Source: Tubiluchus corallicola
Taxonomy: Eukaryota > Animalia > Priapulida
Assembly (NCBI GenBank): GCA_030141605.1
Contig: JAQGDQ010000120.1
Coordinates: forward strand, 372,001 to 436,000
Reading direction: 5' to 3'
DNA: 64,000 nt
Positions 2,631 to 58,199 of this stretch are shown piece by piece. The translations under genes were made by a program, and so were the position numbers. The notes beneath the pieces were generated by a model. The model was not told the DNA's origin, made no database searches, and saw only the letters and a program-made list of their open reading frames with translations. Every line of letters starts with the position of its first letter. Position 1 is the first letter of the stretch.

Positions 2631-2739
2631 CTCATACACGCTGACAAGCTTCAAATCAAAATAGATAGGTATGTAAAGATGAGCAGCCAGGAAGACGTTA
2701 ATGACTTGTCCTACGCAGGTAATAATGAATGATATGCCT
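2631..2739 (-). CDS. SLC5-family (SMCT/NIS-like) sodium:solute symporter, shared coding exon 2
   Basis: Acceptor ttTCAG and donor GAG|GTACTA; 109 nt (phase 2 in, phase 0 out). Encodes (R)GISFIITCVGQVINVFLAAHLYIPIYFDLKLVSVYE, matching the SLC5A8-type segment that ends in P.FY.L...S.YE. Phase fits both upstream ATG exons. Not in the ORF track. The rest of the gene appears to lie left of the window. Confidence 0.9.
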
Positions 2740-4489
2740 CTGAAATGTATAAGTATCATACAGTCTTAGAAGAAAAACAAGAAAAACATTATCGCCGCAA
2801 TTTAAAATGATGTGAAATAATTTTCATCTAAATGCGACATATTTATAAGAGTATTAAACAAAATGTAATTGGGTGATGGAAAAAATCAAACTACCACAAA
2901 AGTCGTGAGCAGCAGCAAAATTTCTAGCAATCAACACTTTCATACATGCGATTATTAGTGAGTGACAGGGCAATTTTCACTAACTCGGTTCGTTTTTAAA
3001 TTTGGTTATTAATTAGATCGGCCCTTGAAAATCACTTATAATCTCATTATTCAAAAGAGAAAAAGTAAAGATCCGTAAAATTCTCAATGGGACGATAACT
3101 GCAAATAAGTAAGTGAATTTCAATTTAATGATTTCATTAAAATGAAATTACATTAAATGGCAAGAAAAGACTCTTCAGAAAATAAAGGTAAAAATAAGTA
3201 TTGAATTTTTGTATCTGTCTTATGGCATACACGGCTTGTACGAAATTTATAAATATAAAATCCCGATGACCTTTAGGCGCAACAAACATGTTAACGGTAA
3301 GTTGTTTTAAACAAGTTTAGATAACAGTGGGTAAAATTTGGAAAAAATAATCAGAGCATTCGTAGCCCAGCAAAAGTTTAAATTACTGTATATTGCCAGT
3401 AAGATCAATAATGTGTTTTATGGTGAGCCAGTGGTGCACACTGGAATAGCATAGTGGCGTATTCCTAGTTGGTGCGACTATTTTAAATTTTTACAAATTT
3501 TCTTTTCCATGTCATTTCAAACGGGTTAGTGTAATGCTAAGAACGGTAACTTAGTATAGAAAGTTTTTTGAGATACTTTAGAAATCACTTTTTCCTCCGT
3601 TAGGTTAAGCAAATGAAATAAAACACTGTTACATTCATTTTGTAACAGACAAACGTAATTTTGGTCGTGGTCTGTGACTTGATATTCTCACGATGTGGTT
3701 TGCTCTAATTTACGAAGCGGGTCTTTCTGTTCTAGATACGGATCTGGTGCCAGCTGGGGGTTTGATCTTGGACTCAGGATCGTGTGGCTAGTGTTTGTTC
3801 AGTGGTCTGGTCTGGTTAGTGGTCTGAACGAAACTAGTGGTTTTGAGAAATGTATTCTCTACTAGAAACGTAGCGGCGCTATGATACACTTTGCCTCTGT
3901 AGAGAAGCTGTATAGGTGACCCTGGGTTTCAGTTGGAATCCAACCTGTGGAGATACTCAACCTAGATCAAACCCCTGTCGGACCAAACCCAGCTGGACCA
4001 CCCCTCTGACAGATCGTGCTTAAAACAGGCCAGACATCAGACCGACCAGTCACAGGCCAAATCTCTAACAGGCCAAACCTCAGACAGATCGGGCCACATA
4101 TGAACCAGCCACAGGCCAAACCTGTAACTAAACGCAAAATTTACTGTATAATGGTGATTTTTGTGATTTGTTACATGCGTAATACAGCATTTTTGTTTGT
4201 GTTACATTGTTACACATTGAGATTTTTGTTAGATAATGAACCTTAATAACTGACGAAAATTTAGCTGGAGGGGCGGGAAAGGTTACACTAATTGGAATGA
4301 GAAAGTGCTTATGTTCGGCGAGCTTTTCTTCATTTTGAAAAGTTGAGCACTTTGCAAGCCGAGTTTCAGCCATCGGCTTACTAATAGCAGGGCTTACTAA
4401 TTACTATGTTTCTAAGATTGTGGCAGGACTGGACTTATTCCATGAATATAATTTTCCAAAAAAAGTCATGAAACGATGATACCTTGGCT

Positions 4490-4583
4490 ACTTTTGGGTG
4501 CGTGTACAATGTACATCCTCCCTCGACGAGGTTAACAGCTATGGGCAGTATGACAGATGAAATCACTTAACACCAGTTTCAAA
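4490..4583 (-). mobile_element. SINE-like dispersed repeat fragment
   Basis: Minus strand gctgttaacctcgtcgagggaggatgtaca...cccaaaagt resembles 17086-17129 (+) gctgtttacctggccgagggaggatataaacggcaaccaaaagt. Confidence 0.4.
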
Positions 4584-5522
4584 TTTTTTATAATGATCAC
4601 CCATACGTTTACCAACTAGTTTCGGTGTTGCTTAGGTTAAGTTCAGATTTTTTCCTCACGCCACTGTTAAGCATATATGACAAACACTCATTTTAGATGC
4701 AGGTGGCTTCGTAACATAGGCTCCTTGTTGGTTGAGCATAAAGCAACTATTATAACCTTATTGAGAAAAGTACCTAATTATGATTCAGTATAAGCCCTAC
4801 GTAGCATTTACGTCAGTAATAGCTTCTAAAAAGATTAAAGAGATTTTACTCAAAATCATTAACGAATGCATTAGCGTCATGAAAAACAGCGTAACTACTC
4901 TACCAGTAACTGCGGATGTGTACTTGAAAGTAATTACCAATGATTTTTGAAACTAGAATGAGAAACTAACAACAAGTGTTGCTGTTAATATATACTTGCT
5001 TATACTACTGCATCATTGTTGTGCTGTTGCTACATGTCAAAATGTAGTGTAGCATGATTGCTTTTTCTTTCATAGTGTAAGTTCTGAACCAGAACGCTCA
5101 TTACACTGTCGATTGTATCAAGCCCTGCTGAGAGTGAATTTTCTCTTGATTAGGATAAATTTTGTAAGAAAACACGTCACAATTTTTTGCTGGTGTAAAG
5201 TTGTAGAGACTTTTTATAAGGACTGCAACTTGTGCCAATATTTATTTAGTATTTTTGAGATCGTCTTACCCTTAGCGATTTAGTTCCAGTTGAAACTCGG
5301 CTTGTCTGGACTTTAATTTGCCGTAAGCTAATTTTAAGATTATTGCATTAATTCATTTATTATTATTTTTGACTTTCAGATGTGTGGGCCTGCATAAAAT
5401 GGTGTTTAAGACTTAAACATATCTCCTACGGCATTACAATGACTTCAGAAAATTAGCACTATTGTGAACTTAGCATGAAAGATGCCACCTTTGATAATGT
5501 AAAATTTGACACTTTTGCTTAC

Positions 5523-5758
5523 CTAGTATAAAACTCAGAACTATATCCAGTTATAGCAATGGCTGAATAAAAACTAGCCAGCAGACTCAGCGCCACGGGA
5601 ACAGTAGACATCTTGCGATCAGCCATAAGAAATTCAGACGTTGTTTGATGCTTAATGTCTCTCAAAGCATAAAATATCCCCACGGCAGCAGGGATAATCA
5701 GCGTTGCAGCAAAAACAACATAATCCCAAACAACAAACTGATTCCTTGTCTCAGGCAT
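5523..5758 (-). CDS. SLC5-family symporter, first coding exon copy B
   Basis: ATG at 5758, donor ACTAG|GTAAGC, 236 nt. MPETRNQFVVWDYVVFAATLIIPAAVGIFYA...EFLMADRKMSTVPVALSLLASFYSAIAITGYSSEFYTR is a typical SLC5A5/6/8/12 N-terminus. Confidence 0.9.
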
Positions 5759-6249
5759 TGCTGTTACTGGACCAAATTAAAAGACAAGATTGTCAGGAAA
5801 AACACTACAGCAAGACTGAAGATATGTATCACACGATTCAGCTTGTAATAAACTATAACTTAGTTTAAAATTTTGAAACAAAGGCCGGACAGGAGGGCTG
5901 AACAGGAGGAATGAACCCCCTAATCTCACTTCAAGTATGTGAAGAATACAATGTATGTGTTACAAGTAAGGTAATTCACGTGACTGTTTATATGTCACAT
6001 TCTTGTACTTTTATCACTCAGTTTTACACAGCATAAATCATTCCCAGTGTGTTGTATAGTTTCGTACTCTAAAATTTGATGAAGCGAACTTTGCCCCCGT
6101 TTGAGTACTAGCAGTTTGGAGTATAAATATCATAGCTTATCTTAGATATTAGCTATGGAACTGCCTGTCCGTTATGTCTTATGTGTGATCGTCCCGGTAA
6201 TTAGACTACTACATAATACATATACAGCGGCAGCAACACTATGAAATTA

Positions 6250-6729
6250 CAGTGTTCCCTCGCTACTTCGCGGTTCGTTTATCGCGGACTCGCTGTTTCG
6301 CGGGTTTTCAAAAATTGCGGTACTCCATCTAAAGTATTTTTGGCATATGCGTAGTACGTATTATACAGTAATGTATAGATTTGATGAATTTTGCATAAAG
6401 AATCACAAAATGTATAAAAATATATTAAAAATATTAATTCCAACATTAAAAGAATGTTATAAATCATAAAAAAGTGCCATTTACAGTAAATAGTGTATTT
6501 ACTCGGCGGTTGAACACACACCAAAAATCGGGAGATCGTTTGCTGCAGTTTGTCGCCATTACGGGATCAACGAATCTACGGTTCGTTATATCAAGAGTGT
6601 GAGTAGGGTTTATAAAGACTTAAAATAATGTATAACTACTAAAATAAGTATAGCGTCCCTACTTCGCGGAAATTCACTTAACGCGGGTGGGCCTGGAACG
6701 GAACACCCGCGATAAGTGAGGGAACACTG
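6250..6729 (+). mobile_element. Tigger/pogo-type non-autonomous DNA transposon
   Basis: TIRs CAGTGTTCCCTCGCTACTTCGCGG / CCGCGATAAGTGAGGGAACACTG with TA on both flanks. Internal remnant GRSFAAVCRHYGINESTVRYIK (about 6530-6595) resembles the Tigger psq-type HTH. Confidence 0.92.
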
Positions 6730-7821
6730 TACTGTTTCATGCCCATTTCATCATTCTTCATTACTGTCACTGCCAGCACGAGCGTCACCATCATCACCGT
6801 CATAGTCACTTTTTTAATTCCGGTTGAAATACATTAATTTAAATTAGATGGCAGTTGGTACTTATGCACCAAAGTGTATAGTTCTAAAACCCTGTATGTT
6901 AATGGGCAAATCATAGCCTTCAGGTCTAAATTATTAAATCAAGCTTGTTTGTGTTTTTCATGGACAAAGTTAAGGAAATTTTGATATAAGTAACCCTGTT
7001 GCTGAGGTGTTAATTTAGGAAATGACTTGGGTTAGTGTCAAGGTCACCAACTTGAAAATACAAGGACAAGACAACTGCGTACGACATATAACTAAAACAC
7101 GGCTTGAACACTAGAAAATTGTAGTAACCTTAAATCACGATAAAGATGAAAAGTTATCAACAGGTCATAATAGAAAATATGCACAAAAAGGCATTATATT
7201 GTTGACTCACTGATAAGCTCAAAAAAAACGTACCCAAAATGTTACCCAGATTATTATCTGAGATCAAGGTCATCCACTTAATAACTTTACATCTTTGTTT
7301 ATGTCTGGTACTTACTAAGCTGTTTTTGTTGGCTAATAATTTAATGATTTTAAACAAGGATTTATAGACATTACAATAAACCAAATTATCTGGGGTAATG
7401 GTCATCAACTTGAAAATGTCTTTACTTTTACGTGCTGCACATTATTGCAATTTATGAAAAATATTTAGAAGAAATTCTGCGTTTAGCAGAAATTTCAGCA
7501 AAATACGCTCAGAAATCTCAAAAATCTTAGAAATCGCTGCAAAATATAGAAGACTTCAGATTATGATCGATCTTAGTGGTCATCTTACTAAAATATTCAG
7601 AAAAGAAAAGAACTGTGGCTCAGTACTGTAGTTAGTGGGCAGGTTGTGCTGATTAATCAATCCTGTCTGATAGAGAGAAGTAACTACAAAATCTCACAAA
7701 TCATCTGCATAATACACAAGACTTTAGGGATCTTTGTTACACGGAGGCTGTTGTTTTCAATTTAACACCTGCATATTACGTTTTCTAACTTATTTGTAAG
7801 CAACAGTGCATTTTGACTCAC

Positions 7822-8057
7822 CTAGTGTAAAACTCAGCACTCACACCAGTTATAAAAATCGCTGAATTAAAACTAGCCAGTAGACTCAACGCTACAGGTA
7901 CTACAGACATCTTGCGATCAGCCATGAGGAATTCAGACGTTGTTTGTTGCTTTCCGCCTCGCATAGCATAAAATATCCCCACAGCAGCAGAAATGACCAA
8001 TGTAGCAGCAAAAACAATATAATCCCATACAACAAATTGATTGGTGCTATACGACAT
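7822..8057 (-). CDS. SLC5-family symporter, first coding exon copy A
   Basis: ATG at 8057, donor ACTAG|GTGAGT, 236 nt. MSYSTNQFVVWDYIVFAATLVISAAVGIFYAMRGGKQQTTSEFLMADRKMSVVPVALSLLASFNSAIFITGVSAEFYTR. An upstream acceptor (ttacag) near 8098 suggests a non-coding exon further upstream. Confidence 0.92.
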
Positions 8058-11000
8058 TTTTAACGTTTTTATAAGAAATACTTTCAAAACAAATAAACTG
8101 TAACTGTAGAGCTTTTTTTAGTTGCTGAAGGCACTAACCAGCGTTGTTTTGTTACGTATATATTATTATACAGCGCGACGCAATGTCCAGTGAGAACTTT
8201 GCCCCAGGTAACTTCATTCTAATGTAAACGATATGTAGCATAAACAGTGGTCAACTAACCAATACTAACAAATAAATACTAACTACTAAATGATAAATAC
8301 TAACCAATGATGTGACTATTTCTTCTATTCAAGTTTATATTACTTCTTTTGCTTTAATATAAGATCAATATACATATATGTATAAAGATAATGTAAATAA
8401 ATATATAAACAGATTTTATATATCACAAAAAGTAGATCAATCTTCAAAGAAATATGCCTTACACAAGCCAATTTTACATCTCCAGTTTCATTTTATACCC
8501 TAGCAAATTTCATCAAAAGCGATCATTTTCAACTTTCGCTTCGCGATATTTTTATTAGCCCAAATAAGCGAATAATGTCTTTTACCTGACCGTGCAGGGA
8601 ATAGTCATTTAACATCGCTGATGGCACATTTCAGTCTCGTTAGTTTTAACCGAACTAGAAAACTTAATTTTGATTTGGGTCTTTCCAGAAGTCAATTTTT
8701 CAATTTATTTTGCCCAATGTAATGAATACTTTCGAGATATTTTTATTCAATTTATCTGCTCAAATCTTTCTTCGTGTCTTGAAAGTGTGCTATATGGTAC
8801 GACAGCTATAGCTGACATCTCTCGCTTATGACCGATTCACACAGCAGAGCATGTAAGTCTAGGTCTGATAAATTTTGAATCCGCTTATTATATGCAACTG
8901 CGAAAAAAACGAGCAGCCTACCTTATTTGAACTAAAATAGGGCCATAGCTTCACCTGAACGTTTTGTTAAAATCGTAAAACAGTGAAAAAGTGAAATTCA
9001 TATTCTTTATTTTACTGTTTTAACTGTTTTTCTCTGTAACAGATAACATGGCTCACTTTAACTTATTAATACTATAACATGGCTAAACCTGGCTGATTAG
9101 TTAGTCACGAGCATGTCAAGAGATCTGTTCTAAATCAGAACGAAAATTGAAGTCCTATCTTTCAGCTCAGTCATTATCATATCTTGATAAACTGAAGTAT
9201 CTTTTTTTCATTGGCATTGAATGAAAATTTCTTAATGTGAACGTTTTTAAGCTTTGGATAATGTTGCTGTTTTCTGAAAAGGAGAAATTTTTGGACAATG
9301 AAATTTTTCCATTCTGCTATCCCTCTCAAAGATTATAATTATTAATTTTATGGTCAACAAATTACTACTACTACACGGTGCGACTTTTGCTTACGTCGCA
9401 TGAGTTGTATACGTCGAAAATTACAATATAAACTGTACATACGATATGATTTTATGACTTGTGCGATACATGATTAAACAGTATCGAACTGTGGGATTTC
9501 ACTTTAAAAATTTTGATGTTTCTTGGGTTTTTATAAATCATTCAATGGGATTTAAAAGTAATTATCATTTTGATTTAAATCTATCACTTAAATCGCGATC
9601 TAAATGGACGATCTTTTAAATCACAGATTTTTTTAACAATGCGAAGCTGCAGTCGGAAAAATAATTATTTAGAATTTGATGATTTTTGCGAAACAGTATG
9701 TTTCTTGGCCAATATAGTTTTGCTTTGTCTTTTTTGTAAAATTTAACGAGTTACTATAGTAGCAACACGTCTGCTTGCAAAAATACCACATCGTAAGATG
9801 CTTCTATCTCAAGTATAGGCCTAGTATTAGAAACATTGGATAAAGTCATTGAGCAGATGGATAATAAACAAAACAAGCTTTACCTTGAAAGGGCAACAGT
9901 TTACAGCAAACTGTAACAGAAAGAAATTAAAAACAAGAAAAATCCGTTTTTGGCGTTACCATTATTTGAAATACAAAAAAAAACACTTTTTAAATCATAA
10001 CTTTATCCAACTCTATCATTCAAATCTAGACAGGGCAGCCTCATCTGATGCCAAGAACCTAAACTCCTAAAGATTAAAGATAAACGTTTTTCAGAATAAG
10101 TTCTCTTATTAGAAAAGACACCATGACAATTTGCTATAAATGTCGTTCCAAGGCAGCCTGCTCTAAAATGACTTACTACGTCCATTACATACGAACACGA
10201 TGCAAATTATTGTAAAGAGATTCGCCCTCTCGGATGTCTGTCAAAAACGCGTAAATCTCGGATATAGGTCTAGAGATACATCGCGTAAATAAACCCTAGC
10301 TTTGTTTCTTTTTGGTTTATATATTCGGTCCCCGTAGCGAATATCATTCAGCGGGGGTAAACATCATTTTTGGCCCCCTTTTCTAGCTTAAAAATGCATA
10401 GAAAACGACTAAATCATCGGTTTTTGTTATTGGGTACCAATCGGTGTAAAACTACGAAGATTGGGGTGTAACTGGTTCGTATAAAGCTGATTCATGCATC
10501 GTCTGCACTGGGCTTGCCACTAGAAATGCCTCAAAATGTGTAAAACGCTTTCTTGTGTGCACTAAAAGCTATAATTAATTCTAATACATCTGCAGAAGAA
10601 ACCAAGGAGAGAGTTTAATAAAATTGATTTAAGTTTATTATAAATTAAGTGACTAATTTAGTAATGTTGAAATGATGTTTAGGCCATTAAACATTTGAAT
10701 TTGCACGGTTAGTTCATTTCGTAATGCTTTCGCATTCTCATTTAAATTCATTTCTTATATAAACTAATTATTGCCGCGGTTATAAAGTTGGGTTTAAGAA
10801 TTGCAACTCACGTGTTTCAGTACATGGTTAATTTTATGCTTTAAATAAAATTCCAAATTTTATTTCCATTATAAAATCGATAGTTAGAGTTTGACATCAA
10901 TTGATAAAGTAACCCTCAACTTTTTAATTTAATGAAGATTTATGCTGTTTCATATAAAATTCTTCCTTGACAATGCAAAACATACTTAGTGAACATTATC

Positions 11001-14717: not shown

Positions 14718-15178
14718 TTATTTAAAACTGTTGCACAACCGTCGACAACTGAATATTGATTTTTCTTTTCGTTGTAGTTTGCAGTACTGAATGCACCTAT
14801 CTCTTTTACTCTTATTTTTGTACAATTCTTCTGAGCCCTGCGATTTTTTTCGTTTTTGCAGTCTCTCCTTTAACCACTTGGCTGCGTCGCTTAGTGCTAG
14901 ATGAAGGTGAGCATTGTCCAACTCCGGACTACCTGGATCTTGTCCTTTAGGTTCTAACAGCGGTTGGATGCGCCTGGTGATGTGACGAGGCGGGACAAGT
15001 TTTCCATTTTCATCTAGATCGTACTCTAGGTCGTACCCTGGTGCATCCTTAAAATTTTCAAGGTAATTTTCCTGAGCTACTGCTTTCTTGAACAAATTCA
15101 CTGCATCTTTCATCTTTATATCTGGTACGTGTGACGAATTATCATCATACAATATTTCACCAAATTCGTCAGGTTCAC
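14718..15178 (-). CDS. Secreted Cys-rich peptide precursor 1, exon 2 (propeptide plus mature peptide)
   Basis: Acceptor ttttttctttAG|GT (phase 1); open for 461 nt to TAA. Acidic propeptide, basic sites KRKK and KSKR, then C-terminal DRCIQYCKLQRKEKSIFSCRRLCNSFK. Confidence 0.85.
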
Positions 15179-15414
15179 CTAAAGAAAAAAGCAAATTGCT
15201 GAAAGGCCAATAATATAATATAATATAATCGTCAGAAAATGGTCGTTAAATTTACTTGTACAAGCATGACGTGAATTCTGGTTAAACACTGGGTTTTAGG
15301 CAAGTGGTATATGAGCAGCAGTCTTTACTTGCGCGGAATCTGTGGGCTCTTGATTTAAAGAAAGTTCTCCACCACCACCTTCCCATTTCTCTTCCCAAAT
15401 GCCACTACCATTAC

Positions 15415-26105: not shown

Positions 26106-26329
26106 CTAACACATAGTTAAACATTGTAACGCTGTCAGTTTTCGATAACACTGGCGAAAACAGTCATTCCGCTTTTCGTTCCACTGTTTAAGATCATTCG
26201 GAATTCCGCTGTCTAGAGGGTATTCCATCTCTTTGATTTGCTCCTGGGGACTCGTTAACCATTTTTCCAGCCAGTCCATTGCCTGATCCAGATTATACGG
26301 TTCTACGGCTTGAACATCATAAGGCAATA
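26106..26329 (-). CDS. Secreted Cys-rich peptide precursor 2, exon 2 (propeptide plus mature peptide)
   Basis: Acceptor ttcatttcAG|TA (phase 1). Encodes LPYDVQAVEPYNLDQAMDWLEKWLTSPQEQIKEMEYPLDSGIPNDLKQWNEKR-NDCFRQCYRKLTALQCLTMC, then TAG. Confidence 0.87.
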
Positions 26330-26486
26330 CTGAAATGAAGCAGGTCATGCATTTTTTACGTTATTACATCAATGATTACGATGATTTCCGTTATTATGAA
26401 CGTGTCTTGTAGCTAAATAAAATAGTTTCGCACAAAATTAATTCAATTAGAGAAATCGGTAAAATTTTATTCCTACAAAATGTTAA

Positions 26487-38718: not shown

Positions 38719-39331
38719 GTAAGTTTGACTGCTTGTTTACATGCACTTAAATTTGTTTGTTTGTGTCAAGTGTGCAGTTATTGCAGTAGTTTTGTGTGAG
38801 TAATTGAGTGATAAATATGGTATAGTTGTCAGGTAACTTTACGATAATAGTGCTACTATAACTTCGAGAAAATTATACTGATGCTAGTAATGTTCAAACC
38901 ACATGAATTTAGCTCATTTTTGATTTGGTGTTTGAAAGGAAAAATGACAGTTTGACTGAATTTCAAAATGTTATTAAAAACATCACTTTCATTATGAAAT
39001 TTTTTGATTCTGTAATATGTCCAGTGAGTTAGTAATCAGTGTAAAAAATTCCATTTTTTTACAGTTCATGTGCATTTGCCTAAACAAGATTTTTTTACCA
39101 TAACTTTTTGGAAAACTGGTGCTAGTACTTGCTTTGGTTAAATAATAAATTTAACTTTTAAAGTCATTCTAATACATTAATGTGACTTGTGTCATATTTG
39201 GTATTTCTAATTATAAACATCTGAAGTAAAATACTTCTAAAATACGCTTTGTACAAATCTGAGACACAAAAACATGCTTTAATGTCACATATTTATACAT
39301 CATACAATTACTGAAATCGTATCTCACTGAT

Positions 39332-41054
39332 AGGATTAAGACTTTTTTATATGAAAGGAATGTGCACATCAAGGTCAAATAACTATACTTCTCAGAAATA
39401 CTGTTGTAAGATTGGTCTGGCACAGGGGTCAGTCATCTCCCCGGTGCTATTCAACTTTTATGTGTCAGACATGTTTGACGAAATCTTAGCAATATCAAAT
39501 ACTAATAATTTTAAATATACAGATGATGGAACAATACTTGTAGCTTGCTCTTCCGAAAATGAAACGCCTAGAACTAGTCAGCTGTGCTGTGATACTAAAA
39601 TGCTCGCAAGGAAAAACTGAAATAATTCCATTTGGCTTTCATAATTTAAATGACTGCTTAAAATTTGGAAATGATGACCTTAGTTACGTGCAAAGTAGTA
39701 AAGTTTTAGGAGTTACAATCGACAGTAATTTGTCATTTGAAAATCATGTAAGTAATGTTAGAAGACCAGCTTGGTATAGGTGAATGTCAATTAAGTGTAA
39801 GAGCATGCTGTATAAAGGTTTCAGTCTCAATGTTATCATTGCTCTATTTAAGACTTTAGTTTTGCCAATTATAATGTGTGCTGCTCCTGCCTGGATGGTA
39901 AGAAAGCACTCATTGTTTGACGATCTGTTGTATGACATTATGAAAACTGCTACTGGTTGTCACTTTCACCCCTCAAAAGTCAAATTAGAGTTAATTTGTG
40001 GACTACCCCCACTTGATATTATGTTTAAGGGAATCACAGTAAAATTTATGCTAAAATCTCTAGCAATGTCGGATTCAGATTTAGTCAAAAGTCATATAAT
40101 AGAGATTAGTCGTGATCCCACAATCGGTCATAGACATTTCATTTGAGAATTACTGGCTTCTGCAGGTCAATATTTAAAATTATGTAAAAATTATAACTCA
40201 CGCTCTACTGATTATGGTAATATACCGCTAAATATCCTTGAGTACAAAAAACAGGATATTGAGCATTTTATATTGCACCTATGGAAAAATAGATGCCGTA
40301 CTTGCTACCAATGCCAGGAGTTATCTATTCTTCCTGAAAATGTATTTTTAATTCCACTAGACCTTCCTTTTCATACAGGTAGCAGAACTCTAGAAAAACT
40401 ATCTTGTAGCATTTTACTAGGACAAGACAGGGACCTCTATAACTAAAGTTATTAGTTATTATTAAGGTCTTTAGTTATAGAGGTCCTTGGACAAGGTAAC
40501 TTTAAAGATTTTCTTTTTAAAATTGGATACATACATGAAAATGCCTGTATATGTTAAGAGGAAGCACAAACAGTTGAACATTTGCTTTTTAATTGTACTC
40601 TGGTTGATGAAAATGAAAGGTTAATGCTCGCAGATATCCTACAATCTCAGAACATTAGTAAAATTTTTACCTCTCGTGACAAAAACCTGCCAGATGCTTT
40701 TACTGAGTTAGTCTGTGATCAATGTTGCAAACTTTAGTATAAAATATTAAACTTTGCATAACAGAACAAATTTGTAGACATCTAATTTTTCTGTTTCTAG
40801 TCACTTTTAAATTGTACAGGTCGTTTTGTGGAAACTGGTGCTATTTGATTTTAGTTGTTCTTTTATATTATTTTGAGGTACGAAATCCGTGAATTATTGG
40901 TATATAAAAGCCTTATGAATGTAACAGCTATTTTTATTTACAAAAGTTTTTTTAACCATACCCTGCAAATAGAGGGACACTGTATGTATATTATGTAAAT
41001 ATTTGTACATGTGTATAATTTTAAATTTTAAATAAAGAATAATAATAATAGTAA
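39332..41054 (+). mobile_element. 5'-truncated degenerate LINE (RT plus C-terminal zinc knuckle) in CDC42SE intron
   Basis: RT motifs GLAQGSVISPVLFNFYVSDM, YTDD, KVLGVTIDSNLSFENHV; C-terminal LLGQGNFKDFLFKIG...CIC*EEAQTVEHLLFNC; frameshifts and stops; AATAAA plus (AAT)n tail; 12-bp TSD tatctcactgat (39320-39331) / tatctcaccgat (41055-41066). Confidence 0.92.
40428..40489. mobile_element. 62-bp MITE nested in the LINE (P-element-like ends)
   Basis: 21-bp TIRs CAGGGACCTCTATAACTAAAG / CTTTAGTTATAGAGGTCCTTG (1 mismatch); flanking 7-bp duplication gacaaga/gacaagg. Removing it restores the LINE reading frame. Confidence 0.85.
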
Positions 41055-48140: not shown

Positions 48141-49566
48141 TTAATATTAATTTTTTGCACAGCTAGGCTTTGTTTTCATAAACCTTGTTACTCTACTAGA
48201 CATAAACTCTTTGCTGTAATAGTTTTTCGTGACCTACCTGTCGGACCTGTTAATAATGATTATTTTATAGTATACAAAAAGAGATCAATTAAAACTGAGT
48301 TGAAAGCCAGGGCATTTTCAACAAAGTTGCAAAGATAGTACAACCCGCGAATTTTAAAGGGTCACTTAAAAAGAGCAAATAAAAATTTAATAGGCTTGGT
48401 CTTTGGCCTAAATTTTTACTAACTATTAGTGTCTAGACTGTGTTATTTCTAGGATTAAAGTACATCATCCATGCAATAAATTTTTGCATACAAGTGTCAG
48501 CAAGTTCCTTTTGTAAACCTCTGCTCTCTGACGTGATTTATTCGTTTGTGATAACGTCTGCTGACAATTGAACGTGCTTTGTGTGGATGTTATGCGTGGT
48601 CAGTAAAATAACCCATGTGACTACCTTTTTACCATTGGTGATACAGCGCATGCTGCAAGCACATTTTTTTAGAACTTGCACACACAAAAAGAAATGAATT
48701 TGCATTGTAATAATGTTGCAAAAAATATTATTAAATTACACTTCATTGAACTCTGCACGTTTATTTAAAGTTTTAGAGCAGTAACTAATTTCCTTGCTTA
48801 CTTAATAATAAGTAATGAAAATAAGTTACACATGTTTTTTCGTATGCTCATCGTTTTTCGTAGAGATCTTTTTTCTACTTTGACTGCCAGTACCTGGGAT
48901 TCTTGCACTTGAAATGTAGTGGTTTGTGCGAAATTAAATGTCGTTATAAATGTGTTATTAACAAGAATTGGTTAAACTTCATAAGTAGAAAAACTAACTT
49001 TTTGCCTGAGGTCTTTACTTCAGTTTTGATGTTGACTGCAGGCCACATTACATGTGAAAAATAATAAATAAAAATGTTTTAAAAAAACAGAACAGCTACC
49101 TTTAAATTATAAAGAAAGGGTTATTTTTAGTGTGAATTAATGTGAATTATCAAGTATAATGGATTATAAAGAAGGTTAAATAACTTAAAGTTCTGGAATT
49201 CTGCATAAAAACGAAACGAAAAACTTGAAATTTAGAGTGTGTAGTTACGTTTGTTTTCATTTCTATGTACAAATTTTTAGCTAAAATTTTACATAAAATA
49301 TTATATAAGTATTACATAAATTTACATAAATCACGTAGAACATAGAAGTGGTGGCATCGTCTGTGTATCTCTTTAATGAAAGTTAATTGGAGCGTTAGAA
49401 TTTTTTGCTTTCTTTATGGTACTATCTATTTTCAAATTTAGAACAGTTCACAGTGCCACTACATGGTAGTTTATTGTCAAACTTTTGTAAATACAATTGA
49501 GCAAATTCTCAAGTTATTAAATATTGCCAGTTCTTGCTACCTGCTGATGTGACATTTTATTTTCAG

Positions 49567-49674
49567 GATTTTCACCAAGAGGACGAGGATTTGGAGGCCG
49601 TGGAGGTGGAAGAGGGGGCGGAGGTGGTCGTGGAGGCTTTGGACGCGGAAGGGGTGGTGATCGTGGTGGACGTG
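49567..49674 (+). CDS. FBL: Fibrillarin exon 2 (GAR domain)
   Basis: ttttcAG|(G)FSPRGRGFGGRGGGRGGGGGRGGFGRGRGGDRGGR G|GTGAGA; phase 1-1. Confidence 0.95.
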
Positions 49675-50796
49675 GTGAGATTTTTTTATTTGTGCATATG
49701 ATAAGTGCATCCCGGTTAGTGGTGAAACACTATTACATTTCTTGTTTTTGTTTTTCTTGCTGCTGGTATTTTTTTATTTTATGAGCAGTGTTTTTAAGAA
49801 ATATTACTGGTATACAAAGTATACTAAATATTGGCTGTTCTGACTAATTTAGTTTAAAATATACACCATGACAATAATTTCTGGTAGCCGCTTGTAATAT
49901 AATATAGTTGAAACCTATATATTATTAATATTATTGTGTCATATTTTGTTTGAAAATCTAATCAGTAACTATGATAAATTCGACTAGCACTGCCATTGTT
50001 ATGATTCAATTCATCTGGTGATAACCATGTTAAATGATCATTGGTTGTTACTGAAACATCAAAATCTTTGTGTTAATAAAGCAGCGAAGTCACTAGACAA
50101 ATTGTGCAGCAGTGATTTAATGTAACAGAGTGAATTTGGAGGTGAGCAACAAATTATGAAAACAAAATGTGTGAACGTTATCAAATGAACAAGAAGTAAG
50201 ATGATAAAGTGTCATCAAGATGATAAGCCGTCGTAACTAAAGCATGATCTGCTAATTCTTGTTATAAACGTTTAAATATGAGGAATATCTTTAAATGATT
50301 GTTAAACAAAAACCATGCTATAGTATAAGTACAGTGAGTAGATTATGTTACAACTCCCCTAGCACACACAGAGCTATTTGTCACTCTTCTGTGTGAATTT
50401 CAAACAAGGAGCTTGTAGGTAGCTTTTTGCATTGTATTGTGCAGGGCACCCTTTTTGCATCTTTGTTTGAGTGCTACGAAAGAATTTTGTGTTACCCAAT
50501 AGTGCAACAACAAAGTGTTGTGTGCTTCCCTACTTTTAATATTTCGCCATGATTGTGCTTAATGAGCATGTATTATTTTTTTAGAATAACAAACTTGAAT
50601 GATGTTGAATGTTACATTGTTCTGTCCTGGTGTTTTTTATTCATAAATGCATTTATAATTCCCGGCTAATGTTAATTTATGACATAGGGCTAAATATAAA
50701 ATAATGATGTTTTATATACAGTATTTTATGTTCTGGTGCCCTTGCCAAAATGTGTGTTATCTCTTGATAGATCATATAATGTACTGTATTGAATAG

Positions 50797-50889
50797 GAAG
50801 AGGTCGAGGAGGTGGACGGGGTGGAAGAGGTGGTCGGGGTGGCTTCGGTGCAGGAAAAAAGACAGTTATAGAACCTCATAGACACGAAG
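50797..50889 (+). CDS. FBL: Fibrillarin exon 3
   Basis: aatAG|(G)RGRGGGRGGRGGRGGFGAGKKTVIEPHRHE G|GTAAAA. Confidence 0.95.
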
Positions 50890-50904
50890 GTAAAATGTGA
50901 TTTA

Positions 50905-51279
50905 AGCCTTTTCACAGTTGTGCGCTTGCGCAGTTGCTTTAGGTCAAAGGTTAAGTGTACCACAGCAACGCATCTTATCTACAACCATCACGTGACGTAC
51001 GAAAAGCAAAGACGTCGGCCGCATCAGTTCAGTAACTTTTAGTTATTTTACATGGACTTGCTTAATTATGCATTAGTCTGTACGTAGAGTGATTTATTAA
51101 CAGGATCTTGCTTGGGGACAAGAAAAATGAACTAGGTAAGGTTATAACTAACTGTTAATACTGTTACTATTACAGTCGTTTGGGCTGCGAGGCATTGTCA
51201 TGTACACAAATGCATTGTCATACATTTAACCTTTGGCCTTTTCACGATCATCATCAATCGCTGGAACTGTGAAAAGGCT
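50905..51279. mobile_element. MITE with terminal inverted repeats (PIF/Harbinger-ISL2EU-like)
   Basis: Perfect inverted ends taagccttttcacagtt (50903-50919) / aactgtgaaaaggctta (51265-51281), plus an inner pair ggtcaaaggttaagtgta / tacatttaacctttggcc. Confidence 0.8.
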
Positions 51280-51639
51280 TATTGTCTGAATGCAGTTAGA
51301 ACTATCTTAGTTTTGATAATCAGGCCAATCAACTTGTGTTTCTCATTTGATCAGAGCATTGGTAGTGGACTTCATGTTAGCTTTTTTAATTTGGTGTTCT
51401 AACTGAAACATAAACAATTTTCTATACTGTTGTATTTGTAAACATGATTATTAGCTGAATTGTCATAATGTATTCTTAGCAACTAGAGGTTAAGCAATTC
51501 TGGTCTGCTTAGTGAATGGATGTACATATCCTCAGTATATGACACCTCTGCTGTTTGTGGGTGTTATAAAATCATTGATAATTAGTTAGATTCTGGTCAG
51601 TTACAACTATTAGAACATAATAATTAGGGTGAACTGTAT

Positions 51640-51925
51640 AAAGAAAAGCACTTAATGGCGATTTTTCATATCCTACTCCATTTTGATGTACGGTAAAAAG
51701 TAAACGTTTTAGCACCTGTAATAGTGCCAAAGCATTTCTGATAATTAAATAATTGGTTAAAAACTTAATTAATGGTGGTTGAGCCCAACCAGTGATGAAA
51801 TCACAAGTATTTTTCAACAGCACAAATCTTTCACATAAGTCATTGAAGAAATTGTATGTTCCCTTTCAATATTTTGTAGGGTAGATTGTTTTGAGCTATA
51901 ATTTAGGATTGGGCCTGACTTTCCT
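51640..51925 (-). mobile_element. Internally deleted Kolobok-type copy
   Basis: Reverse-complement match to both ends of the 26487-26988 element; ends ctttcct|TTAA. Confidence 0.75.
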
Positions 51926-52030
51926 TTAATCTAACTGTTCAAAACAGTTTTTCTGAACTATGAGTTATTTATGTTTTTTTCTTATGGAAAAGTTAGGGTG
52001 CAATGCACAGCCAGTGCGTGTCTTTATATG

Positions 52031-52394
52031 TAGGGATGAGCACTCTCTGTCAGAAAAGGAGTCAAATCGAATTTCAAGATTTTGAATCTGAATCGATTCA
52101 AATTCAGTTTTAAAGATTTTCATGTGAATTTTCGAATCATTAATAAAAAGCAGTGTCGCAGAGATCATGTGTATTGCTTGATTTGTTCTGCAGCTAAAAA
52201 CACTAATAATAATTCAAAGACTGTGTACAAAAATTGCAACTAAATTGTGCTTATTGCATGTTGCTTCAGACATTTTAGTGATAAAGAACATATGTAGTTG
52301 AAGTGGTGTATTATTTGAATCCATAATTTTAAATTCGAGCTGAATTCGAATTAAACAAAACTCGTTCGTTTCGAATGTTCACTGCTCACCACTA
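52031..52394. mobile_element. hAT-type MITE
   Basis: Ends TAGGGATGAGCA / TGCTCACCACTA, subterminal ttcgaa-type repeats, flanks tttatatg/ttgatata (6 of 8 match). Confidence 0.65.
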
Positions 52395-52777
52395 TTGATA
52401 TATGTTATGTGGTCATTGCTTGTAATTACTCTTTTACTGAAAAGTAACTGGGTGAAGAAAATTTCTTGATGTCTTGTCATGACTTTGGGAAATGCTGTTA
52501 TGAACCCAAATTTCAGTGTCCTTGTTACCACGTTTACCACGTTTGTAGCATATTGCTATACACATTAGTAAAGGTGAAAAGCAATGTTCAACAAAAATTA
52601 ACTTGAAAAAGATGAAATCAGAAAAAGTCTGCTGCGTCGTTAGCTCATTATATTTAAATTGTAGATGAAATTTAGTGTGAACTTCCTTTCGACATTTTTA
52701 CTATTTTTATGAGAAAATATGAGGATGTAGAGCTGCAAAAAATTTCTATGATAATTTAATATTTTCTTTTTTCATAG

Positions 52778-52875
52778 GTGTTTTCATAGCTCGTGGAAAA
52801 GAAGATGCCCTTGTCACAAAGAATATGGTGTTGGGCGAGTCAGTTTATGGTGAGAAGCGGATATCAGTTGATGCT
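52778..52875 (+). CDS. FBL: Fibrillarin exon 4
   Basis: ttcatAG|(G)[32 protein letters not shown]|GTAAGC. Confidence 0.97.
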
Positions 52876-53514
52876 GTAAGCAGTCCGTTGGCTTAAGCTT
52901 GGTGTTCACAAGTGGCAAAATTCCAATGTTTGGTACATGATGCACGATACACAAACGACTGCTACTCATTACATGAATGGAACGAACAAAATTTTAGGCA
53001 TTTGCAATTATACATGAACAAAACGAAGGAAGATTTGAAAAAATAACGACAATACAAAAAATACAACGACAAAAACTTATTGCAGTTAAATAGTTGATAA
53101 TAATTAAAATTAGACCGATGTCCTACCACTGATACAAACATTTAGTGCTTAACTGTCCGCGTGTATTATTCCTCGTAAAAATGCAAAGCACTGGTCTATG
53201 CTATCTAAGTTGTAAGTATTAACGTTGTCAAAAATTTTGGTTACCTGCCAATTGATAAAAAACTTTAGCTGTTTTGGACATTTGTCACTCATCGGATTGT
53301 AACAATGTCTATAATCGTGCTGTTGTTTTCCAAAAATTTTTTGTTTATACATGCACTGCATGAAGTTTTTGTAGCATTTTGATTTTGCAAATTAGGAAAA
53401 GGTCAAAATCAATCTTTAACTACTGCAGATAAGATTAGCACCATTTTTAAATGCTTATCTTATTGCCAGAAGGTTGTACGTGTGCGTGAGCAGTACTGTT
53501 ATGTTTTATTGCAG

Positions 53515-53682
53515 GATGACAAAAAAATCGAGTATCGGGTGTGGAATCCCTTTCGATCAAAGCTTGCTGCTGCCATTTTGGGTGGAGTTGATAAAATATA
53601 CATGAAGCCTGGAGATAAAGTATTATACCTTGGTGCTGCTTCAGGGACTACAGTTTCTCATGTATCGGATATAGTGGGACCG
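53515..53682 (+). CDS. FBL: Fibrillarin exon 5
   Basis: ttgcAG|[56 protein letters not shown]|GTTAGT; includes the SAM-binding motif. Confidence 0.98.
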
Positions 53683-53748
53683 GTTAGTACACCAGCACGA
53701 TACCAAAATAAATATGAATATTTTACTGAGTGCAACCTTAATAATATA

Positions 53749-55821
53749 CGGTATATACGTGTGTACAAGTCGACCTTATGCACGAGTCGATGTGCATTTT
53801 AAGACCAAAAATTGCATCATTTTATATATTACCTGTGTACAAGTCCACCATAAAATATTAAGATCTTCCAGAGTAAATGATGTCAACATTGGCCATGTAA
53901 TAAATCAATAGCCTACTGTGTTAGTGTGTAAGATACGTGCAAGTGCCGAGTATATTATACCTACCTGATGTATGTGTATATATATATATTCACGTTGAGG
54001 ACCCTCAATGCAATCCATGATAATGCAGCCTGGCCTTTCATCGCTTATAATTGTTTGTAATGCCTTTAACCATAGGATATCACGTCCAGGATCCGTCGTA
54101 ACATTTAAGTCGCTGATTTCTCATTTAAAACTAAAAACTCATACCTGAAACATCACAGTTTTATTCAGTAACATCTGTAACGTGCCGAGGGTTATTTGGT
54201 TAAAAACAAAATAACTCCTGCCACCATTGTAACGTTTTGAAGGCTATTGCATTCCTAATTTTTATATAATGATCAGGAAAATATACTACATGTATTTTCA
54301 CGGGTTCATCTGCTGTTTTTTAAGGCTGCTTAGTTAAAAACAAAACAAGATGAAACATAAATTTTAAAGCTATAATTATTACAAAAGAAGAGCACAACAA
54401 CAAGTCAACAATAAGAGCTCAAAATTACTACTTGTGGCTTGCTGTGAATACCCCCAAGGAAAGATGAGGATAGGAAAATGAATGCGCATAACTTATCTGA
54501 ATGTTCATGACGATGTTGTGCACAACTTGACGATCCTCCCACAATGACAACGCTGACGCCGGCAACATGACGATCCTCCAAGAGCCATAACAATGCAGAT
54601 GACGACAGCTAATCAACAGCTTCCAGCAACCCTCTTGTAGTCTACAACACCAACGTACCAACAGCTGACTGGAATGGAATAACATCACACTTCTTTGGCT
54701 TGACCATCTCTTCAAACCATGTAACAGCAACGAGACTGAGAAAGACAGGCTATACAACAGGAACACTGTCCTTTTGGCCAAAACAACACTTAGCTCAGCT
54801 CTCCATGGTAAAGAAGTTACATCACAGATCGTGTACCAGCCTTTCCAGACAAATACGTTAACTACAGGTATGTTGGAACATGCCCACTGGTCAGACCAAC
54901 AGTAAATGTCTGTACCAGTGAAAAGTATCAACTCAACTGTTCAGATCAGGTATTGCTTTTTCTGCATAAGCAAACGAAACACTCCAACAGGTAAGTACAA
55001 ACCATTTTAAGTGACAGGGGTGAGGAGATGATGAAATGAAAGAACACATACAGCAGTGCAAGGAAAGCAAGCCATTTACTATCAAAATTAGCAGCACGCA
55101 CCTCACAATATCTTTTGAATAGAAATACACCTCAATTTTCAAATATTAATTCCGTTTATGCGTATTTACGCTAGATTTTCAACAGTTGGTATCAATCTGA
55201 AGATCGTTCTTGCTTCCATGTTTACAAGTCCGACCTTATTAATTATGCATGCAGTCCTCCTTTCAACACAACTCGTCACAGGGTACTTTTTCTAATCAAT
55301 CACAGGCATTTTTATAAAAGCGCTAATTGAAGCGGGGCACCCATATTCGCCTGCAAGCTTTTCATATGCTTCTCTTGTAGACTAGTATGGTATGTGTCAC
55401 GTACATAGTAATGTAAGTAAACATGTATTGCATGTGCTTGTATATTGTGTGTAAGCCGACAGGCGACAGCACCTGCACAACATTAGCGATTTCCATGTTC
55501 TGATCGAGTGCTCCGTCGCTAGTTTATTTACTGGTAATATATAAATTTTAACTTAATTTCAGATACATTAAAATAAATTACAGCAATATTTGTTAATTTT
55601 GTGAAGTAATATCAAGGTGCGAACATTCTCTGATGTGAAGTATCACAATATGAGTGTTCATTCAGTCCAGCGCATAATGAAGGATTATTTCTTTACATAT
55701 TCGTATTGTAGACAACTCTTTAGCGACATCTCCCGAAAACATAAGTAAGTATAAGTCGACCCCAAAAATTTCCCCTTAAAATCATCTCCCAAAAATTCGA
55801 CTTGTACATAAGTATATACAG
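53749..55821. mobile_element. Tc2/pogo-type non-autonomous DNA transposon (about 2.07 kb)
   Basis: TA|CGGTATATACGTGTGTACAAGTCGA ... TCGACTTGTACATAAGTATATACAG|TA (25-bp TIR, 3 mismatches); internal repeats of the taagtcgacc-like motif. Confidence 0.82.
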
Positions 55822-56048
55822 TAATATAATAAGACGTCTCTTAAAGACTTCTCATTTAGCAACATTTTGTTTTGATTATGACAAACTTTTACCCCTTTTT
55901 TCACATTTAACCATATATGTTTCATATTAATGGGGGTGAGTTTTTGGCCAAACTACTATTATTGTTATTCTTGTTATATTAATATTATTATTGATTTTTG
56001 CATTGTCAATTTTTGCTCCCAGAACACGTCTCTGTGCTTTTACATTAA

Positions 56049-56500
56049 AGAAAAACTGAACGATTTTTCGTATTCTATCCCATTTTGAAGTACTGTAAAT
56101 AGTATACATTTTAACGTTTATAATGCCAAAGTGTTTCTGATAATTGTACAGTACCTTTAAAACTTAATTAATGCCCGGCATCACAATTGAACATAGTTTT
56201 GTAATGGTGCAAACACCATGCACATCTGCCGTGCGTGTTTGCAAAATCTAAAATTGAGATGTACTGGTATTGTACAAGCATTCACTGTGATTCACAAAAA
56301 CTCTGGAAGTTTAAGCTTGAAAGTTTAAATATCAAGTTTACTGTTGTGCTAACTCACAAATTTTCGAATATGTGTGTCACACGAAATGTGTTTATAGATT
56401 AGGAATGGCGTTTATTTTTTGTGCAGTGCATTTCTGAGATGCAGGCCCTGGTGCCCATCTAGCGGGAATGGTAGAATGCATGCATGGCATGCAACCGCGA
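56049..56500 (-). mobile_element. Diverged Kolobok-type copy
   Basis: TTAA|AGAAAAACTG start; body is the reverse complement of the family (e.g. gtttctgataatt, aacttaattaatg, gtgcccatcta). Right boundary approximate. Confidence 0.65.
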
Positions 56501-56740
56501 AAGATAACAACTGAAATGTGAAAAAAGTCTATTTAAGAGACATACAACGAGAAGCTAATTAAAATGAGCTTAAACTTGCATTTGAAAATTAAATAAACCA
56601 CCTGAGATAAAACTATTTAAGCAAGGACTTGCTGTACTGTGTGTTTAAAAATCCTTGCTTTTTGTTGTCAAGTTATAATTTTGTTTATGAACACCTGTTA
56701 TTAATTATACTGCTATTAATATGTTGTAATATTTATTCAG

Positions 56741-56873
56741 GAAGGCCTAGTATATGCTGTTGAGTTTTCTCATCGCTCTGGTCGGGATCTCATTAATGTT
56801 GCCAAAAAACGCACTAACATCATTCCAATAATAGAAGATGCTCGGCATCCACAAAAATATAGAATGTTAGTTG
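56741..56873 (+). CDS. FBL: Fibrillarin exon 6
   Basis: ttcAG|[45 protein letters not shown]|GTAAGT. Confidence 0.98.
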
Positions 56874-57491
56874 GTAAGTTTGCTGGTAGGCTACTGTTAC
56901 TTAATTTGTGAGAACCCAACTCTGATTTCAAGGTTGTCCTCAAGCTAGAGGTTTTCGGACCTTTAAATTTTATACATCACTTTTAAAATACTTGTGTACA
57001 CAGCGCTATAGAACCAATAAGCATTTGATATTTTTTCCAAAGAAACTAAATCATAAAATTCCAATTATTTGTAATTGACTCTAGGGAGGGTGCAGTGTGC
57101 GATTGTTGAATGATGCTTCACCACTGATGTATGTAAACACAAAATAGAGACAAGGGTGACAAATTTAGCTTCTTTTATTTTGTCCTGCAAAAGTAGTAGC
57201 TTTTGCCTGTTTTGAAACTAGCAACGTGGATAGTATGCATGTAAAGTTCTACATCGAATGTGAGACTGAAGCTTGAAATGTGGAGAAACAATTGGAAATA
57301 GTTGAGACAAATGTGAAATAAATAGGAGAACAGACATTTGTGAAAGACCTGCACTGCAGTAACAATGCAAGTGATTGCCTGACAGTATCAGAACTAGTTG
57401 AGTATTGTGACAAAGAGGTGTACGTTAAATCTATTTTTATTACCCATTCTTCAATGTGCTTATTAATAATTGGCTTGTACTGTGCTTTCAG

Positions 57492-57604
57492 CAATGGTCG
57501 ACACAATATTTGCAGATGTGGCTCAGCCGGATCAAGCTCGAATTGTAGCCATTAATGCACACCATTTTCTCAAAAATAATGGCCATTTTGTAATATCAAT
57601 CAAG
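57492..57604 (+). CDS. FBL: Fibrillarin exon 7
   Basis: tttcAG|(A)[37 protein letters not shown]|GTAATT. Confidence 0.98.
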
Positions 57605-58199
57605 GTAATTACTAATTTCTTATTAACTTTTTTTCTGTTCATAATTGTTAATGGACTCATTAACACAGACAGTAACCTTTTACGAAATTACAGTTATTGC
57701 ACAGATTATACTACGGTGGCGCGGAAAAAATGTGCTGAAGCATAGACTGGGCCAGAATTTCTATGCTAATCTCCCCTCTTGACTTTTTTGCTCTTGGCGT
57801 ATTCTACTATATGCACTTGTGAGTTTATTTAGTTACTTCCCAAGTGTGTTTTCACTCAGAAACTGCATGCAAAAATTGTAGGGTTCTGTGTTCGTTGCCA
57901 AGCCAACAAAAACGCAAACTCGGGACAGATGGTGTAAAATACGAAATTGCTGATTTGTCAAGTTATCAGTGAAATTTTGCAGTTTCGCTTCCAGAATTTC
58001 TTGTAAACCTGGCATTACAAAGAAAACAATAAACAAAATTCTAAATGGTTTGGTCTGAATCAGGAAATGTTAGGTCTCATTCTGAATAAGAGGTTAGTAT
58101 TGATAGTGATTAATTATAATAAATCATTTCAATTGAAATTCAGTCTTCACGCTTCATCCTGGATTCTCTGGATTCTTGTAAAATGTCATGCTGCTTAGA

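Follow-up and report, generated by a model that had tools for sequence, protein, structure and literature searches.

Alternative exons alter the ion or substrate affinity of some solute carriers, as exon 4 of SLC12A1 (NKCC2) and the alternative exons of SLC7A2 do. Variable first exons are known from other systems: in the UGT1, GCNT2 and protocadherin clusters, a variable first exon with the substrate-recognition residues is joined to constant exons, and the copies undergo birth and death (PMC1885805); in N-terminal tandem exon duplication-derived substitutions, each transcript uses a single one of neighbouring homologous 5' coding exons, and transporters and channels are enriched among them (PMC8373072, PMC9741552). 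Here, we describe a gene of the SLC5 type from the priapulid Tubiluchus corallicola with two homologous first coding exons, A and B, followed by a single exon 2 (Table 1), in a stretch of 64,000 nucleotides (nt) that we call the window (assembly GCA_030141605.1, contig JAQGDQ010000120.1, positions 372,001 to 436,000). On balance, we consider it probable that this SLC5A5/6/8-type symporter gene uses each first exon alone with the common downstream exons, which would give two transporters likely differing in substrate preference or affinity.

Exons A and B share with the N-terminal substitutions their arrangement as adjacent homologous coding exons of the same phase, both intact; whereas ligand-binding residues are reported as mostly conserved in the human set of such substitutions (PMC8373072, PMC9741552), those residues change in this gene. 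Compared with UGT1, GCNT2 and the protocadherins, it has two copies and not an array (six in the sea urchin model described below), only one pocket helix is variable, and it encodes an invertebrate membrane transporter; as in UGT1, the substrate-recognition residues on the variable exon appear to have diverged, judging from alignment to the SMVT and NIS structures. SLC12A1 and SLC7A2 are also solute carriers with duplicated exons (PMC8373072), but these are internal exons of other, vertebrate SLC families. The human transporters SMVT (SLC5A6), SMCT1 (SLC5A8) and NIS (SLC5A5) match the gene without gaps over transmembrane segments (TM) 0 and 1 and have the same intron, at YE|YL, after exon 2; unlike them, the gene has two first exons, an extra intron after codon 78, and the residues N/F/V (A) and Y/A/Y (B) at positions 64, 68 and 72 around the TM1 kink. 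The class of duplicated-first-exon swaps is thus already known, while its occurrence in SLC5 genes is apparently unreported: literature listings, with most subscription papers outside their coverage, gave no report of duplicated or alternative first exons in SLC5 genes, and the term "SLC5" is absent from the main text of PMC9741552.

Table 1. Exons, introns and flanking elements of the gene, in positions of the window.
Feature	Positions	Strand	Description
Exon A, first coding	8057-7822	minus	236 nt = 78 codons + 2 nt; TM0, intracellular loop, kinked TM1; kink/gate residues N64, F68, V72; ancestral type
Exon B, first coding	5758-5523	minus	236 nt, length and phase as exon A; Y64, A68, Y72; S23P, G34D, G35I, Q37H; derived type
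Exon 2, common to A and B	2739-2631	minus	109 nt; TM2 and the loop after it; acceptor TTTCAG, donor GTACTA
Intron, exon B to exon 2	5522-2740	minus	2783 nt
Intron, exon A to exon 2		minus	5082 nt
Spacer between exons A and B	7821-5759	minus	Without SLC5 exon; contains high-copy element at ~6248-6731
Tract 5' of exon B ATG	5785-5759	minus	Acceptor-like pyrimidine stretch and two AG sites (5768/5767, 5762/5761)
Region 5' of exon A	8170-8058	minus	Acceptor-like site 8082/8081; promoter-like words: TTAGT at -80, AT-rich run near -110

By its sequence and its kinked TM1 motif, the gene is assigned to the SLC5 / sodium:solute symporter family (PF00474). Over TM0-TM1, exon A matches human SMCT1 (E 7.6e-23), SMVT (3.6e-19) and NIS (2.6e-12). 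Homologues of the exon peptides carry PF00474; a Pfam scan of the short peptides themselves assigned it to none of the three, the sole match being DUF4022 at E 0.023, under the cut-off, and an Atlas search returned generic SSF clusters only. A six-frame profile search built from 24 full-length homologues found exon A (E 1e-35), exon B (1e-33) and exon 2 (7e-6), and no fourth SLC5 piece in the window, the next match having E 3. Targeted scans of the spacer and of positions 1-2630 yielded no second exon 2 (best score 7 against a self score of 183) and no exon 3 (12-20 against 36-56 for true exon-3 sequences), so the remainder of the gene extends past the left edge of the window. The end of exon 2 is the YE|YL intron position, kept in most homologues, while an intron after codon 78 is suggested in only 1 of 283, judged by where the open frame ends.

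The original prediction of two intact 236-nt ATG exons with equal phase-2 ends, with no SLC5 exon between them and a single exon 2, agrees with the sequence and with these scans. Both exons are free of stops and end in phase 2 at AG|GT (donors GTGAGT in A and GTAAGC in B), and exon 2 continues the frame of either. If A were joined to B through 5768/5767 or 5762/5761, B would be out of frame, as had been claimed, and stops would follow at codons 82 and 84; joining A to any of the eight AG sites in the 140 nt before B leads to a stop at codon 80-119. By those sites, therefore, a full transporter comes only from transcripts with one of the two exons. The exons had been called mutually exclusive; in its strict sense this term needs a common upstream exon, and alternative first exons fit at least equally well. 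Acceptor-like sites precede both ATGs, no upstream exon was identified for either, and the closest coding-like stretch upstream of the gene ends near 14,720. Initiator-like words occur at -80 (A) and -61 (B), with a background of 1.1 per 250 nt.

Between A and B, 46 of 236 nt differ (19.5%, mostly silent), as do 16 of 78 residues. Five of the residue differences fall in codons 50-78, namely V52T, N64Y, F68A, V72Y and A74S. In ungapped alignments, positions 64, 68 and 72 correspond to Q80, A84 and V88 of SMVT and to M68, Q72 and V76 of NIS. In SMVT, Q80 bonds the ureido group of biotin, A84, the residue at the end of the kink, holds the carboxylate through its main chain, and V88 belongs to the outer gate; the authors of that structure regard the kink-end residues of TM1 as likely major determinants of selectivity (PMC13454448). 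In NIS, Q72 and V76 delimit the iodide site, Q72A is inactive (10.1101/2022.04.07.487502), and the carbonyl of M68 coordinates Na2 (10.1101/2025.10.07.681042). By alignment to these cryo-EM structures, the three positions are predicted substrate-contact or gate residues. Counting by hand bears out the earlier placement of NIS Q72 opposite position 68, and the mapping to the pocket is stronger than had been claimed, since it involves three contact or gate positions instead of one. Three of the five differences fall on the six contact positions of codons 50-78 (p 0.046; 0.017-0.052 over four ranges).

Neither form reproduces the pocket signature of NIS, SMVT or SMCT1. The signature Gln of NIS at the start of TM1b (Q72) is F in A and A in B. 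The SMVT set Q80, A84, V88, Y99, L102 and Y106 reads N/F/V in A and Y/A/Y in B, followed by F, T and Q in exon 2 (offsets counted by hand). The M-T-T of SMCT1 at 64/68/72 is found in neither copy, nor do the copies group with SLC5A8. The triplets of A and B occur in none of the 279 homologues scored; the nearest is N/F/I in P0003, an open frame of 81 residues whose end coincides with that of exons A and B. In a tree of 73 columns and 52 chosen rows, A, B and P0003 make up a separate clade (95/99), whose deeper position, like the deep forks generally, is unsettled. Of 73 residues compared, 23 are different between P0003 and A, only two of them in positions 56-78, and P0003 keeps N64 and F68 with I72; in that comparison B differs from A at 12, including all of 64, 68 and 72. 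Because so distant a relative keeps the A-type N64 and F68, B is the derived copy. It is more telling than the enrichment test that P0003, at 23 residues from A, has retained N64 and F68, whereas all three positions have changed in B, at 12 residues from A.

A comparable layout is seen in other invertebrate SLC5A8-like gene models, which likewise have homologous alternative or repeated first exons before one constant part; their variable exon runs through TM2 (~115-122 residues), unlike exons A and B. The 1274-residue model of the sea urchin Diadema setosum (XP_072169927.1), returned by a search with A, B and P0003, contains six tandem TM0-TM2 exon copies and one C-terminal part, and is likely a variable-first-exon array fused by annotation. 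The isoforms X1 and X2 of Branchiostoma lanceolatum (XP_066266083.1/XP_066266085.1) have 19 differences, none of them beyond residue 116; these include the equivalents of 68 and 72 together with two contact positions in TM2 (4 of 9 contact positions, p 0.036). Their first exons are identical in protein over 25-73 and carry 16 differences in 74-116, as if conversion had homogenised all but the pocket-lining part. In the older model C3Z6K9 of B. floridae both amphioxus copies stand in tandem, and the extra copy groups with X2 of B. lanceolatum (100/99), so the amphioxus duplication is older than the split of the two species. The isoforms X1 and X2 of the scallop Ylistrum (XP_060075307.1/XP_060075308.1) have 12 differences, all in the first 122 residues. 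The copies of each lineage cluster together in the tree and not with A or B, which suggests separate origins of the layout.

These pairs were drawn from 10 clusters picked for having several members. Among the 17 pairs compared, seven were annotated isoform pairs, from five genes; a homologous N-terminal swap was found in two of the five, a proportion that, given how the clusters were picked, is no estimate of frequency, and the others differ further on or by truncation. More than one exon-1 domain was present in 4 of 302 proteins, two of which were kept as parallels; the other two, from Strigamia (P0067) and Condylostylus (P0107), have two exon-1 domains ~600 residues apart, were read as fused whole genes and were dropped. 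A metagenome scan reduced 199 candidates to one locus, on a 4.3-kb contig with a single first-exon copy; this SLC5A8-like locus (2741-3867) has its first coding region split by an intron near codon 50, unlike the gene of the window.

Over codons 6-78, dS (silent divergence) between A and B is 0.60 and dN (replacement divergence) 0.107, a dN/dS of 0.18 (bootstrap 0.07-0.36; Fisher p 2e-6), a comparison that the original prediction had proposed as a check. The pair is thus an old duplication (dS about 0.6) under purifying selection. If B had been neutral and had taken half of the silent changes, ~34 replacement changes would be expected, against 17 seen in both copies (p 8e-4); this assumes equal silent rates. 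Maintenance of both copies had been argued from the absence of stops and indels: the conclusion is supported by dN/dS, which is the better argument, since a neutral copy diverged by 20-25% would still have an open frame 7-12% of the time. B is nonetheless the fast-evolving copy (end branches of 0 for A and 0.21 for B), positive selection and relaxation being indistinguishable here, and purifying selection on its own branch is less certain.

If each exon is used alone, each would most likely have its own transcription start, by analogy with human N-terminal swaps, and transcripts begun at A would skip B; a common non-coding exon, or trans-splicing to the acceptor-like sites, are alternatives that the sites before both ATGs leave possible. 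Form A, with F63 and the bulky F68 together with N64 and V72, may occupy the niche in which SMVT accommodates a carboxylate; the position equivalent to F68 holds a small residue in both SMVT and SMCT1. Form B, with F63 and the small A68 together with Y64 and Y72, may reopen this niche while narrowing the outer gate. Because only the TM1 wall is swapped and TM2, 3, 6, 7 and 10 are common, a wholly different substrate is less likely than a shift between related ones. We regard the use of both exons as quite likely and, given that use, a functional difference between the pockets as likely too. The original interpretation, in which both exons are maintained and the choice between them may switch substrate specificity, is partly supported.

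Several observations weigh against this reading, some in general and others in favour of the alternatives to which they are assigned in the next paragraphs. The use of both exons is predicted from DNA. The window stops 2.6 kb past exon 2, so that the gene beyond it lies outside and 115 residues lie inside, and the promoter words 5' of A and B occur at chance frequency. Columns 64, 68 and 72 are among the most variable of the family, so changes there are partly expected, and the p-values for contact enrichment are marginal and uncorrected. The parallels in other invertebrates are known from database gene models.

The alternative that survives best, though we find it unlikely, is that B is a decaying copy, constrained for part of its history and now silent or non-functional, whose pocket changes reflect relaxed selection. 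Most polarisable changes fall on B, although polarisation by P0003 alone gives just four B-derived, two A-derived and six ambiguous differences (p 0.69), and its branch is the longer one. Its P23 (S23P) stands where 154 of 158 homologue domains have Ser and none has Pro, while I35 (G35I) is found in 0 of 158 domains and Y64 in 0 of 156. At 10 of the 11 A-B differences of codons 23-49, A's letter is also found in a third or fourth copy, these being two further copies in run X1. Contigs of X1 traverse exon-intron borders, so this run is DNA, possibly not independent of the source of the window. Against decay, the ATG, donor, length and frame of B are all intact, even the upper bound of dN/dS is 0.36, replacement changes are too few for neutrality, and B sits closer to exon 2 than A does. 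The X1 allele of B points the same way without reaching significance: its 141 coding nt contain one difference, a silent one, and its 482 upstream nt contain 13 (p 0.21).

Only slightly less plausible is that both exons are used for regulation, two promoters giving tissue- or stage-specific expression of a transporter for much the same substrate. Human N-terminal swaps arise from alternative promoters (PMC8373072), most of the pocket lies in common exons, and duplication need not retune the pocket: the TM1 kink is unaltered among the scallop and urchin copies, the six of Diadema having identical residues at 64, 68 and 72 and varying in TM2, and the Ylistrum pair differing at 0 of 9 contact positions. 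In the Tubiluchus gene, by contrast, contact positions undergo the large substitutions F-to-A, N-to-Y and V-to-Y, two of which need 2-3 nucleotide changes, and single changes at the equivalent position of NIS weaken or abolish transport (10.1101/2022.04.07.487502).

We think it improbable that A and B come from two genes of a cluster that interleave or are partial duplicates, with one gene continuing in an exon 2 and later exons of its own past the left edge of the window, or having lost them. The short stretch left past exon 2 would allow this, and two further exon-1-like contigs in X1, outside the window, indicate several copies of the family somewhere. However, no second exon 2 is present in the window, either between A and B or after exon 2, and a copy without downstream exons would not stay constrained. 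Interleaved paralogues on the same strand are rare.

That the duplicate is an assembly artefact, through two haplotypes or a misjoin, is very improbable even though no X1 contig bridges the two exons, since A and B differ at 19.5% of their nucleotides, against an allelic difference of ~2% in X1, most of their differences are silent, their likeness ends with the exon and 13 intron bases, beyond which the flanks are unalignable, and each lies on a separate X1 contig with its own upstream flank (~1-2% other letters). The artefact that the original prediction named as a refutation is therefore not borne out, and duplication of the first coding exon in this gene is a near certainty. The X1 contig for exon A covers 7835-8126 with two other letters and one gap letter, the gap lying upstream of the ATG; that for exon B covers 5618-6257, with its one synonymous difference in the coding part 5618-5758. 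For the TM1 part of exon B (5523-5617) X1 has no B-type contig, but the B contig stops where two other copies stop too, so the gap is no evidence of absence. Contigs of run X2 match only repeats of the window.

The two additional first-exon-like copies in X1 come from contigs that align to 5612-5759. One is 668 nt long, with 22 other letters in 148, and the other 180 nt, with 27 in 143. At three sites one of them agrees with B and the other with A, while elsewhere both go together. One runs on, at a loose end and by hand translation, into the TM1a stretch LPVLPVALSL. Their source may be a paralogue that shares the two-exon layout, or else a different organism present in the run.

What determines selectivity in SLC5 is an open question according to the authors of the SMVT structure, who indicate both ends of the TM1 kink (PMC13454448). 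The Tubiluchus gene offers a natural change of one kink end, its neighbour and an outer gate residue, while everything from TM2 onward stays identical; two cDNAs would therefore put this proposal to a direct test. Recurrence at two of the same positions in amphioxus, together with the repeated first exons of scallop and urchin, suggests a general invertebrate route to diversify nutrient or anion transporters without copying whole genes, which would also mean that such genes are mis-annotated as single fused proteins. A bolder version, which we hold only tentatively and consider rather doubtful, is that a UGT1-like first-exon swap of the selectivity helix, giving different cargo, arose several times independently in invertebrate SLC5A8-like genes, with form A here binding a solute that is cationic or bulky and hydrophobic, and form B binding a carboxylate. 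If so, A/B and the amphioxus pairs would be natural three- or four-residue experiments on SLC5 selectivity. Form A has aromatics at both kink ends, a pattern described for the choline transporter (PMC13454448), but the residue of that transporter at the Q72 position is aromatic in one source (PMC13454448) and Ala in another (10.1101/2022.04.07.487502), a disagreement that weakens the guess of a cation for form A.

Other features of the window were also noted. Between A and B, positions 6248-6731 hold a high-copy element (summed contig depth in X1 >1600) with imperfect terminal inverted repeats of ~24 nt, resembling a miniature inverted-repeat transposable element, and a further repeat lies at ~3290-3520. 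Two coding-like stretches on the minus strand (14721-15180 and 26109-26360) are acidic, with a CxxxC...CxxxC end after basic residues; they resemble secreted peptide precursors and have no Pfam match. A broken reverse-transcriptase remnant, similar to those of long interspersed nuclear elements, occupies 39315-40446 on the plus strand (RVT_1, E 3e-8). Pieces of a fibrillarin gene, a glycine- and arginine-rich exon and two matches to Pfam PF01269, are found at 49548-57745 on the same strand.

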